Source: a virus. From it: a stretch of DNA of 50,138 nt. The notes under the pieces were generated by a model. It was not told the origin of the DNA, ran no database searches, and worked only from the letters and a program-made list of their open reading frames with translations. The stretch lies in the IMG/VR virus record IMGVR_UViG_3300029947_000009, positions 1 through 50,138 of that record; one strand, written 5' to 3'. This document shows positions 12,167-14,005 of the stretch, piece by piece. The position numbers and the translations under genes were made by a program. Numbering within the stretch: the first letter of the stretch is position 1; each line of letters opens with the position of its first letter.

Positions 12167-14005
12167 TTAGGGAATTATTTCCAGGAAGGCTCTGATAGTA
12201 GAACCCATATGGCCATTTGACTTTTCTATGGAAACAATTCTAACTGTAGTTCCAGCGTTTAATAGGGTTTCTCCTTCCCCCGTTCCAAAATTGGATATAC
12301 TCATAATAGAAGAAGCTGAGGTTCCCGGGGGAGCATGGAAAATTATTTCCACGTTTCCATGAAATCCACGATCCCAGAGACTGGAGGTACTTGTAAATCC
12401 ATTGTAAGTTCCCACTACCCCCGAGAGCTCTTGGTTTAGCTCCTCCACAGACATGTGGGATAGTTTATCCCTGTTTTCATGGAAACTTCCAGGTAAGAGT
12501 CCAGCTAGATCTCCGAGATCGGTTCCTCTACGTAGGTATAGGGACTCAGTAGTTTTCAGGGAATTTAGTCCCTTCATGGCCTCTTCAATAGCCTCTAATT
12601 GGGAGGAGCTAATACCAGACCTTCTTATAGCTTCATCTCTACTTACTCCACTACCCACATATCTTAGGTAGGAGTTCATCTCTTCATAGCTAGAGCCAGT
12701 ATACTTCTTTAGGGCCTTTAGCTGAGTCTGAGGCAACTTCTGTAGCCCCCGTCTCTCCCAGTCCAACATAGAGGATTCAGTATTCTTCTTAACTCCTGAT
12801 ATCCAGTCCTTAAAGGTAAGAGCTCCCGTTTTACGTCTAGTTCTATGAGGCTGGGATTTTATGATAGAGTCTTTTATCTTCTGGGATGGACCAGATAGTA
12901 TGTTGGAGTTATACCACTTCTCCATGGCCTGATAGGGGTGGGGGTCGCTCCAACTACTACCAGCCAACTTCAGTAGCTCAGATTTATCATTAGGACTTAA
13001 CCCACTGGCAAACTCATAGAAACTTTGGGGCATGTGACTTTTGGAGAACCCAGCTTTACCGAGCCACTCCTTCTGGAGTGGATTAGATTTTAATTCAGCC
13101 TTGGGAAACATACTATTGGCCCACTCATCTATCCCAGCATCATCTTTACCAAGAGCCCAGTCAGCTAGTCTATCGGCTATGTTCTCTAAGCTGTCCATCT
13201 CCACGAGGAAGGTGCAAAGTCCATTAGGATGGTCCAAGGGGAGATCGTCAGCAGAGTAGACCTTTCCATCCCGCTCATTGCAGATTTCACAGGTTCTACT
13301 AGTGTGAGCTGATCTCCACTTATATCCGTGAACGAAGGGATTATGCCGAGTAGTAGCCAGGAGGGACTGTTGATAAGAATGGGATACCATAGTCCTAGCC
13401 AGTCTTTGAGCATTGTAGTCCACTTTTTTATTGGTTCCCGGATGGACCTTAGACCAGTCCCACTCCTTTTTGGCCAAGGGATTCACATACTTCTCCAGGT
13501 CTTTAGCTATCTCATAGGCAGATTTATTTCCCGCCACTCCCATGGCTATAACCTGATCTATATCGTGGAGGGTTTTCTGTTCCTGACCCCAGATGGATTT
13601 ACTCAGTGTCCAACCTTCCCCATATACCTTTCCTGTGGATAGTTTATAGACTATATCCTTAGGAACATAGCTGTAAGCTCCCTTGATGGATATCCCAGCT
13701 TTCTTTAGCCAGGCGTCATTATCTTCTACCACAGCTCCAGCAGCATCTAACATACCTTTCTCTATTTGGCTTTCTAGGTCCCAGCTTATAGACTGATAAG
13801 CCTCTTTTAACTGCTTGGTGAGTTTATTAAGGTAGGTTCTCTGGATGGACTGAGAGACAGTGCCTTCTCCCTTTAGGGGAAGAGCATCCATCTGCTTCTT
13901 ATAATCCTTATAGACCTGCTTATAGAGATTGGCTATTTCTTCTTCTTGCTCTTTGGTTATCTCAAGTCTTGTCTGCTCGGCATTGTAAAAACTGATTTTA
14001 GCCAA
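12167..14005 (-). CDS. Minor head protein (SPP1 gp7 / Mu F-like) fused to a C-terminal ADP-ribosyltransferase domain
   Basis: The middle region has the gp7/MuF signature (GYKWRSAHTSRTCEICNERDGKVY...HPNGLCT). The C-terminal ~190 aa carry YTGSSYEEMNSYLR, LYLRRG (Arg), FTSTS (STS) and GEGETLL (ExE), the R-S-E ART triad. Confidence 0.85.
   Translation of the reverse strand: MAKISFYNAEQTRLEITKEQEEEIANLYKQVYKDYKKQMDALPLKGEGTVSQSIQRTYLNKLTKQLKEAYQSISWDLESQIEKGMLDAAGAVVEDNDAWLKKAGISIKGAYSYVPKDIVYKLSTGKVYGEGWTLSKSIWGQEQKTLHDIDQVIAMGVAGNKSAYEIAKDLEKYVNPLAKKEWDWSKVHPGTNKKVDYNAQRLARTMVSHSYQQSLLATTRHNPFVHGYKWRSAHTSRTCEICNERDGKVYSADDLPLDHPNGLCTFLVEMDSLENIADRLADWALGKDDAGIDEWANSMFPKAELKSNPLQKEWLGKAGFSKSHMPQSFYEFASGLSPNDKSELLKLAGSSWSDPHPYQAMEKWYNSNILSGPSQKIKDSIIKSQPHRTRRKTGALTFKDWISGVKKNTESSMLDWERRGLQKLPQTQLKALKKYTGSSYEEMNSYLRYVGSGVSRDEAIRRSGISSSQLEAIEEAMKGLNSLKTTESLYLRRGTDLGDLAGLLPGSFHENRDKLSHMSVEELNQELSGVVGTYNGFTSTSSLWDRGFHGNVEIIFHAPPGTSASSIMSISNFGTGEGETLLNAGTTVRIVSIEKSNGHMGSTIRAFLEIIP

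Follow-up and report, generated by a model that had tools for sequence, protein, structure and literature searches.

Why would a phage head protein end in a domain related to ADP-ribosyltransferase (ART) exotoxins, and what would restrain such an enzyme in the cell that produces it? The question is raised by a 50,138-nt sequence (IMG/VR record IMGVR_UViG_3300029947_000009, positions 1 to 50,138; hereafter, the window) from a gut-type phage of ~50 kb that is apparently virulent. A preliminary description, made from the DNA letters and their translations, had proposed that a 612-aa head morphogenesis protein of the SPP1 gp7/Mu F type (MuF) carries a C-terminal ART of the C3/VIP2 type, and that this enzyme would probably be injected together with the DNA during infection, in a manner comparable to T4 Alt. 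The features discussed below are collected in Table 1.

Table 1. Location of the MuF-ART gene, its parts and the associated genes in the window
Feature	Coordinates	Strand	Details
MuF-ART gene	12167..14005	(-)	612 aa; TTG start; stop codon 12167-12169
MuF (SPP1 gp7 / Mu F) module, aa 1-295	13121..14005	(-)	PF04233; 92-94% identical in siblings
Variable helical/disordered linker, aa 296-397	12815..13120	(-)	AF2 pLDDT; indels among homologues
ADP-ribosyltransferase domain, aa ~398-612	12170..12814	(-)	R493, S539-T540-S541, E577-x-E579; profile, fold
Recombination cassette (toxin C-terminus + small ORF)	11888..13120	(-)	blastn breakpoints; replaced in siblings
67-aa Cys4 protein	11906..12109	(-)	C25, C28, C44, C60; GGAGG ribosome-binding site
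Portal protein	14209..15792	(-)	context; presumed docking partner of MuF
Head scaffolding protein	11094..11795	(-)	context; sibling homology restarts just upstream
DraG-like ADP-ribosyl(arginine) hydrolase (ARH)	25490..26314	(+)	PF03747 E 3.8e-46; early/replication gene block

A head protein ending in a complete ART domain

The 612-aa ORF was recovered as described, preceded by an AGGAGG Shine-Dalgarno sequence 8 nt upstream of its start codon. Assignment to the MuF family held as well: the protein matched PF04233 (Phage_Mu_F; aa 149-260, E 4.8e-8, 34.2 bits against a cut-off of 29.6) and phrog_1657 (head morphogenesis; E 4.4e-60), and its gene follows the portal gene in a head module with the order TerS-TerL-portal-75aa-MuF-ART-67aa-scaffold-decoration-MCP. 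The 75-aa ORF upstream of MuF gave no Pfam or PHROG match. Within the MuF module, residues C239, C242, H259 and C264 were invariant in the homologue alignment, and the linker that follows includes a basic stretch of low AF2 confidence (aa 371-395). A further PHROG hit, phrog_595, is labelled 'head maturation protease'; this label was dropped as inherited from protease-MuF-ART fusions of actinophages, and the Pfam scan detected no protease domain in the protein. A match to an Alt-like PHROG was marginal (E 8.6e-4, aa 376-447).

The profile search against ADP-ribosyltransferase exotoxin families that had been suggested for the C-terminus returned PF03496 (ADPrib_exo_Tox) at aa 422-599 (E 9.2e-20, 71.2 bits, cut-off 23.4). 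These Pfam scores place both the ART and the MuF matches far beyond chance. The four motifs previously claimed within 12167-12733 (aa ~425-612) were all present there, at aa 435-448 (YTGSSYEEMNSYLR), 489-494 (LYLRRG), 537-541 (FTSTS) and 576-582 (GEGETLL). HMMER alignment to C3 exoenzymes identified R493 as the catalytic Arg, S539-T540-S541 as the STS motif and E577-x-E579 as the counterpart of the C3 Q-x-E. Among 117 homologues sharing 46-98% identity, Y435, N444, G494, E577 and E579 were invariant, and R492, R493, S539, T540 and S541 were at least 90% conserved. The AF2 model, with pLDDT above 90 over aa ~400-612, displayed the helical N-lobe and split beta-sandwich of the ART fold. Using this model, Foldseek retrieved 8za7_B (Lmo0066), C3stau2, C3bot, Certhrax, CDTa and iota Ia with E-values down to 3e-11; target-normalised TM-scores were 0.84 to 8za7_B and 0.70-0.84, at a probability of 1.00, across Lmo0066, C3 and Plx2A. 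Profile, C3 alignment, conservation and predicted structure thus agree in assigning the C-terminus to the C3/VIP2 clade as a complete R-S-ExE ART. The preliminary description had located it correctly but made it slightly too short: instead of ~190 aa, the structural domain spans ~215 aa, since the fold begins near aa 398. The domain looks active, and its R-STS-ExE site predicts NAD+-dependent modification of protein arginines, arginine being the probable acceptor because of the ExE motif and of the DraG-like partner described below.

Exchange of the toxin cassette among sibling phages

Comparison with sibling phages (~90% DNA identity to the window) delimited an exchangeable unit. In three sibling contigs, whose portal and MCP were 92-97% and 98-99% identical to those of the window, blastn homology stopped at position 13120/13121 and restarted at 11884-11887. 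The segment in between is replaced in the siblings by a divergent ART, a 40%-identical ART or a metallopeptidase-like domain with an HEYGH motif, each accompanied by a different small ORF. The first 300 aa of MuF were 92-94% identical among siblings and the remainder only 19-32%. A search for proteins identical to those of the window, as a route to the sibling contigs, found none. The alternative C-termini of MuF proteins comprised divergent ARTs, HExxH metallopeptidase-like domains, DUF3626 and further domains without assignment. The locus therefore combines two traits of MuF polymorphic toxins, a constant N-terminal MuF joined to a variable C-terminal toxin among close relatives and a small downstream ORF (<150 aa) that co-varies with the toxin, and the swapping of the cassette represents polymorphic-toxin behaviour.

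Residence in a temperate phage or prophage, another trait of these toxins (Jamet et al. 2017), was not seen in the window. No integrase or repressor was found with Pfam or PHROGs in the 54 proteins scanned out of 66 predicted ORFs; the other 12 ORFs are all of 150 aa or less, a length that rules out an integrase but could accommodate a repressor. In addition, genes for PolA, a primase-helicase and nucleotide metabolism give the phage replication functions of its own. This trait is known not to be strict, because lytic Microbacterium phages also carry a MuF-ART fusion (PMC7302621). A search for close relatives in a one-genome-per-species set gave 105 pattern matches, 0 of them confirmed, and no near-identical DNA was found among isolated phages.

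Two candidate partners of the ART

The Cys4 ORF begins 57 nt downstream of MuF-ART and is swapped along with the toxin. It had no Pfam or PHROG match, its AF2 model was uninformative (mean pLDDT 47.7) and a word-indexed homologue search yielded only 12 close relatives. Members of the family follow 25 of 34 ART-type MuF genes as compared to 0 of 49 other MuF genes (counts not phylogeny-corrected). Among the nine ART-type loci without a detectable Cys4 ORF, three lie at a contig edge and are undecidable, one (L010) has no plausible small ORF and the remaining five carry different small ORFs. One Cys4 representative (P0277) is a natural Cys4-ARH fusion; against a dedicated role, the Cys4 domain was also found fused to the unrelated domains DUF1643, GNAT and DUF6508. 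We regard the Cys4 protein as a candidate cognate immunity or partner protein of the ART.

The second candidate, the ARH, lies 11 kb from MuF-ART on the opposite strand. Its closest solved relatives are the Arg-specific DraG (2e-41), Tri1 (4e-23) and Lmo0067 (1e-14), and its catalytic D/T motifs were invariant in the ARH alignment. An ARH gene sits directly downstream of MuF-ART/Cys4 in 19 of 34 ART-type loci versus 0 of 49 others, and IMG/VR contigs contained an ARH in 22 of 32 ART-type cases versus 0 of 47 other cases, neither comparison being corrected for phylogeny. The IMG/VR relatives were retrieved with alignment A2 as the query, a single-protein query having found none. The sibling carrying the metallopeptidase-like cassette and no ART, whose ARH locus was reached via cluster members, retains a distal ARH that is intact, with 80% identity and conserved motifs. 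Consequently, the ARH is not strictly tied to MuF-ART in this lineage, and the idea that the distal ARH is its strictly cognate antidote is weakened. Compared to known ART-ARH pairs, the window has the hydrolase on the same element but does not show adjacency with strict co-inheritance; adjacency was seen in 19 more distant relatives. We regard the ARH as a candidate enzymatic antidote or reverser of the ART modification.

Relation to known systems and proposed role

MuF-ART fusions have been described in the EFV toxin (Fieldhouse 2010, PMC3000352), among MuF polymorphic toxins (Jamet 2017, PMC5576092), by Iyer 2017/2022 (PMC5512222, PMC9503650), for Bxa in 2024 (PMC11699363) and in actinophages. 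Since injection has also been proposed in print for this architecture (PMC3000352, PMC5576092, PMC5512222, PMC9503650), the interpretation of MuF-ART in the preliminary description is supported but not new; the exchangeable cassette, the phage-encoded ARH and the pointer from ExE to arginine were absent from that description. Like the window protein, the EFV toxin (Q838U8, from an Enterococcus faecalis V583 prophage) joins an N-terminal MuF to a C-terminal R/STS/ExE ART, with the portal and scaffold genes as neighbours; arginine was suggested as its target, it was likened to Alt and E461A/E463A abolished its toxicity (PMC3000352; PMC5576092). EFV has 487 aa and comes from the prophage of a Bacillota pathogen, whereas the window protein has 612 aa, a longer linker and a source in an apparently virulent metagenomic phage. 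Bxa, from the Bacteroides stercoris prophage PhiBxa, is likewise a MuF-ART fusion in a head-morphogenesis region, ADP-ribosylates arginine and is countered by Bsi, a small immunity protein that binds it, and by BAH, an ARH-family hydrolase; its relatives have the MuF N-terminus fused to alternative toxins, as the window siblings do (PMC11699363). By gene set, this three-part logic matches MuF-ART, Cys4 and ARH, which are found in adjacent order in 19 relatives. The differences are that Bxa has 869 aa and belongs to a temperate Bacteroides phage, and that in the window lineage the ARH lies on the other strand at a distance of 11 kb and is kept in an ART-less sibling.

The same architecture occurs in the MuF-like/VIP2-like ART fusions of actinobacteriophages, among them the Microbacterium phages Goodman, Johann and Percival, annotated so in GenBank; by tblastn, the window ART domain showed 23-30% identity over at least 85% of its length to actinophage sequences in 28 records. 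Goodman and Johann are lytic and encode their own DNA polymerase I, as the window phage does (PMC7302621), but the actinophage fusions belong to another host phylum, share low identity and in many cases are also joined to a capsid maturation protease. In both sequence and structure the window ART was best matched by Lmo0066 of the pair Lmo0066-Lmo0067 (PDB 8za7), and the solved relatives of the window ARH include Lmo0067, its partner, and Tri1, the immunity protein to the T6SS ART Tre1. Both pairs consist of adjacent toxin and hydrolase genes with delivery by secretion systems, in contrast to the head protein of the window. Unlike the window protein, T4 Alt lacks a MuF domain. A capsid-targeting sequence directs its packaging, the prohead protease cleaves it, and T4 is not known to encode an ARH partner. 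Alt, a T4 ART like ModA/ModB, nonetheless offers an established example of a head-packaged, injected, Arg-specific R-S-ExE ART (discussed in PMC5512222).

With moderate confidence, we propose that the window encodes an effector of the MuF polymorphic-toxin family that is packaged, injected and ADP-ribosylates arginines of host proteins, under the restraint of Cys4 and the ARH. By analogy with SPP1 gp7 and Mu F, the N-terminal ~295 aa would bind the portal and be incorporated into the procapsid in a few copies. MuF-ART would be made late alongside the head proteins and then packaged, and at the next infection it would exit the capsid with the DNA. SPP1 gp7 and 80alpha gp44 are precedents for virion presence and ejection with DNA (cited in PMC12226406), and the injection model and the comparison to T4 Alt put forward in the preliminary description are reasonable inferences. 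Once injected, the ART may ADP-ribosylate host cytoplasmic proteins, leading to host takeover or counter-defence. In the producing cell it is probably restrained by the co-transcribed 67-aa Cys4 protein and the DraG-like ARH, the latter of which, located in the early block, might in addition undo or curb the modification once the ART has been injected. A more elaborate version, which we consider unlikely, would be a timed write-then-erase switch on host proteins in a Clostridia-type gut phage, with a capsid-delivered Arg-ART and an early DraG-like ARH, in which Cys4 would found a new ART-specific immunity or chaperone family. If true, modification by the ART at injection would be undone once early genes are expressed.

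Other roles were weighed against the evidence above. The toxin might be released by lysis and modify eukaryotic (e.g., cytoskeletal) proteins in the gut, acting as a Bxa-like fitness factor towards the animal host with the bacterial cytoplasm as collateral. In its favour, the Bxa MuF-ART of a gut Bacteroides prophage has non-muscle myosin II as a substrate and favours colonisation (PMC11699363), toxicity of EFV was seen in yeast (PMC3000352) and the closest folds, C3, CDTa and iota, are eukaryote-targeting toxins. We nevertheless judge this role unlikely: the phage appears virulent, with its own replication machinery and no integrase or repressor found among the 54 scanned proteins, and would gain little from colonisation by a lysogen; moreover, MuF-ART has neither a signal peptide nor an uptake domain, and its tight association with genes for an Arg-hydrolase and a small partner argues for activity in the bacterial cytoplasm. 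The lifestyle of the phage also weighs on the high-toxicity model of Jamet 2017 (PMC5576092), in which particles kill non-immune competitors and immunity genes shield kin. A polymorphic C-terminus with a linked small ORF is a hallmark of toxin-immunity cassettes, but such a weapon requires immunity-expressing lysogens, the window showed no lysogeny module and the few ART molecules expected per virion would be only mildly toxic, as PMC5576092 says of ARTs; hence this model seems quite improbable.

As regards the substrate, the R-S-E ARTs include enzymes that act on nucleic acids or draw on NAD-capped RNA, which leaves room for ADP-ribosylation of DNA or RNA ends, for ModB-type RNAylation or for a phage component as the target. 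MuF proteins are described as binding DNA ends (cited in PMC12226406). Sequence and fold, however, group the window ART with the protein-targeting C3/VIP2/iota enzymes, including an ExE ARTT loop, and the linked ARH is closest to the protein-Arg hydrolases DraG and Tri1, so we hold a non-protein or phage substrate to be very unlikely. The least probable reading is that the domain is catalytically dead and extends the head protein structurally: nothing specific speaks in its favour, and the catalytic residues are all conserved in the 117 homologues of 46-98% identity.

MuF-toxin fusions are common, and the evidence for EFV, Apk2 and Bxa consists only of toxicity upon ectopic expression plus the colonisation phenotype of the Bxa lysogen. 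The window leaves the knowledge of this kind of system unchanged; what is new in it is the swapped toxin/Cys4 cassette, the association of Cys4 with ART-type MuF and the co-occurrence of a DraG-like ARH. Altogether, it provides a natural comparison set of near-isogenic phages, in a lytic-looking lineage, that differ only in the toxin cassette, and contributes two candidate partners for neutralisation, one of which is displaced to the early gene block. This makes it a reasonable system in which to study whether a head-packaged ART acts at injection.

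ART domain of the MuF head protein

The preliminary description had proposed an ADP-ribosyltransferase (ART) toxin domain fused to a MuF-type head protein, here MuF-ART. The ORF encodes 612 aa from a TTG start codon, with AGGAGG located 8 nt upstream. All four ART motifs claimed for it were found: YTGSSYEEMNSYLR (aa 435-448), LYLRRG (aa 489-494), FTSTS (aa 537-541) and GEGETLL (aa 576-582). The suggested profile search against the ADP-ribosyltransferase exotoxin family matched ADPrib_exo_Tox (PF03496, aa 422-599, E 9.2e-20), and Phage_Mu_F (PF04233) covered aa 149-260 (E 4.8e-8), both above the curated Pfam cut-offs. 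Similarly, the protein matched phrog_1657 (head morphogenesis, 4.4e-60) and phrog_3895 (ART exoenzyme toxin family, 2.6e-9) in PHROGs.

A PDB sequence search returned Lmo0066 (4e-6), several C3 exoenzymes, Certhrax and C3larvin, and the alignments placed the catalytic Arg at R493, the STS motif at S539-T540-S541 and the C3 Q-x-E at E577-x-E579. When 117 homologues (46-98% identity) were aligned, Y435, N444, G494, E577 and E579 were invariant, while R492, R493, S539, T540 and S541 were ≥90% conserved. The AF2 model reached pLDDT >90 over aa ~400-612, with moderate confidence only for the MuF half. Foldseek against the PDB gave Lmo0066 (8za7_B) as top match to the ART, with a target-normalised TM of 0.84; C3stau2, C3bot, Plx2A, Certhrax, CDTa and iota Ia also matched, all of them, including Lmo0066, with probability 1.00. 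Thus, the profile match, the R/STS/ExE alignment to C3 and the ART folds bore out the domain call, the Phage_Mu_F and phrog_1657 matches together with the SPP1-like head-module position did so for the MuF call, and the fusion signal is confirmed far above chance level. Separately, C239, C242, H259 and C264 of the MuF domain (window 13210-13291, minus strand; aa 239-264) were invariant in the 117 homologues, which suggests a putative zinc-binding site inside this domain.

Genome layout, lifestyle and host

The minus-strand head module that contains the MuF-ART gene has a canonical SPP1-like layout. The 75-aa ORF between the portal and MuF genes, which overlaps the portal 3′ end, showed 73-83% identity in siblings (related phage contigs with nearly the same backbone and another toxin cassette) and matched no family.

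Coordinates (window positions) of the features discussed
Feature	Position	Strand	Remark
Dit	2650-3561	minus	
Tape measure	3563-6637	minus	
Major capsid protein	9595-10632	minus	
Decoration-like protein	10671-11075	minus	
Scaffold	11094-11795	minus	
67-aa ORF (Cys4)	11906-12109	minus	
MuF-ART	12167-14005	minus	
Conserved 75-aa ORF	14019-14246	minus	
Portal	14209-15792	minus	
TerL	15785-17125	minus	
TerS	17112-17909	minus	
Spo0A C-terminal-domain protein	18681-19100	minus	
dCMP deaminase	20175-20783	minus	neighbouring minus-strand block
418-aa protein	22082-23338	plus	
ADP-ribosylglycohydrolase (ARH)	25490-26314	plus	PF03747, E 3.8e-46
Small protein	27117-27338	plus	

The plus-strand block encodes a primase-helicase, a family A DNA polymerase, an exonuclease, a Sak4-like annealing protein, a helicase, ThyX, a thymidylate-synthase-like protein, a dUTPase and an HD protein. 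Its second predicted ORF, the first large gene of this presumably early block, encodes the 418-aa protein, which had no match in Pfam or PHROGs and was ~30% identical to a 335-aa protein in the same position of a sibling, where neighbouring genes shared 84-98%; this makes it a hypervariable early gene. Nucleotide-metabolism genes were dense at 20175-20783 (minus), 27789-28993, 32172-34446 and 40079-40666 (all plus), comprising dCMP deaminase, the HD protein, ThyX, dUTPase_2, the thymidylate-synthase-like protein and DUF1599 ('nucleotide modification associated'). The phage DNA may contain a modified pyrimidine. The polymerase of a sibling also had a UDG-family Pfam match.

Pfam or PHROGs scans of 54 of the 66 predicted proteins detected neither integrase nor repressor; the other 12, all ≤150 aa, are long enough for a repressor but not for an integrase. 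The window also nearly equals the longest contig with an identical MuF-ART protein (50,138 and 50,158 bases, respectively). On both grounds, it looks like a nearly complete genome of an apparently virulent siphophage. The nearest isolated-phage matches were Clostridium and Clostridioides phages (34-38% identity, MuF half only), which, together with the Spo0A_C-domain gene, suggests a spore-forming Bacillota host. The Spo0A-type protein was just 58% identical in a sibling, and the sibling counterpart of the small plus-strand protein had a weak SpoIIID match; together, these genes hint at phage interference with host sporulation regulators.

Exchange of the toxin cassette and its small Cys4 ORF

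We compared the window with three sibling contigs of ~90% DNA identity in the backbone (portal 92-97% and major capsid protein 98-99% identical at the protein level). Homology broke at 13120/13121 (MuF-ART aa ~295) in all three. In two of them it returned at 11884-11887, ~20 nt beyond the point where the 67-aa ORF stops. In the third, which kept the small ORF (58%) beside a 40%-identical ART, it returned at 12096. The replaced segments encoded either a divergent ART of family PF03496 or a metallopeptidase-like domain with HEYGH, and each brought a small ORF unrelated or merely pattern-similar to the 67-aa ORF. Therefore, ~11888-13120 is an exchangeable cassette of toxin plus small ORF. In sibling and related MuF genes, other C-termini (L001 6886-7692, L040, L049) included DUF3626, family-less domains and HExxH metallopeptidase-like domains of at least three unrelated kinds, which are further candidate head-delivered effectors.

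The 67-aa protein has a strong ribosome-binding site and four invariant cysteines (C25, C28, C44 and C60; hence Cys4). Among 83 MuF loci, a Cys4 family member lay 3′ of 25 of the 34 MuF genes of the window's ART type, compared to 0/12 other long and 0/37 short ones (Fisher p 5e-14, uncorrected for phylogeny). Searched with a profile, 1.8 billion representatives yielded 138 Cys4 cluster representatives, mostly free-standing and 56-95 aa long, with one natural Cys4-ARH fusion and others to DUF1643, GNAT or DUF6508. The family had no match in Pfam or PHROGs, and the AF2 model of the 67-aa protein was unreliable. These data moderately support reading Cys4 as a candidate for the ART's cognate immunity protein or partner.

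The DraG-like hydrolase and the proposed mode of action

The acidic metal-binding motifs of the window ARH were invariant, and its closest solved relatives were the arginine-specific DraG (2e-41), Tri1 (4e-23), which is the immunity protein to the T6SS ART Tre1, and Lmo0067 (1e-14), the partner of Lmo0066. This kinship fits the ExE motif of the ART, both pointing to arginine, as ExE corresponds to arginine acceptors in this ART clade (PMC3000352; also established knowledge). An ARH lay directly downstream in 19/34 ART-type MuF loci versus 0/49 others, in the order MuF-ART, Cys4, ARH, scaffold, and was present on 22/32 ART-type IMG/VR contigs versus 0/47 others (matched by contig name). The window ARH is in the early block, 11 kb from the ART; 3 of the 22 ARH-bearing contigs likewise had it distal and on the opposite strand. 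The sibling with the metallopeptidase-like cassette retained its ARH intact at the corresponding position in the early block (80% identical, motifs conserved), which argues against strict ART-ARH pairing and reflects either a recent cassette swap or an additional role of the hydrolase.

In the best-supported model, MuF-ART would be made late and built into the particle via its MuF domain, leave the capsid together with the DNA and ADP-ribosylate arginine residues of host proteins, while Cys4 and the DraG-like hydrolase would neutralise or reverse its action. What the data show is the identity of the domains, their fold, the conserved motifs, the genomic setting, the exchange of cassettes and the co-occurrence; enzymatic activity, the acceptor residue, packaging and injection, the targets and what the two partners do are inferred. 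We ranked below this model a dead ART domain, nucleic acid as the ART target, a weapon killing competitors and a eukaryote-directed factor like Bxa. Bxa, an arginine-modifying MuF-ART from a Bacteroides stercoris prophage, is neutralised by Bsi, an immunity protein that binds it, and the ARH hydrolase BAH (PMC11699363).

The MuF-ART architecture is common (1790 proteins at E ≤ 1e-5, with both Pfam domains in nearly all of the best 120) and several published descriptions of it exist. Fieldhouse et al. 2010 reported the EFV toxin, encoded by a prophage of E. faecalis V583, as a phage minor-head domain with a C-terminal ExE ART, already drew the analogy to the T4 ART Alt, and abolished its yeast toxicity with E461A/E463A (PMC3000352). 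The definition of 'MuF polymorphic toxins' came from Jamet et al. 2017 (PMC5576092), and Iyer et al. (2017 and 2022) presented fusions of MuF with ARTs of the Alt/VIP2 family as effectors that are packaged in the head and injected (PMC5512222, PMC9503650). GenBank records of actinophages carry the annotation 'MuF-like minor capsid & VIP2-like ADP-ribosyltransferase toxin', and actinophages with such fusions include lytic phages encoding their own DNA polymerase (PMC7302621). Altogether, the preliminary observation and its interpretation were correct, yet the fusion belongs to a known class, to which the precise limits of the cassette, the Cys4 family, the hydrolase displaced into the early block and a genome that is apparently lytic add modest refinements.
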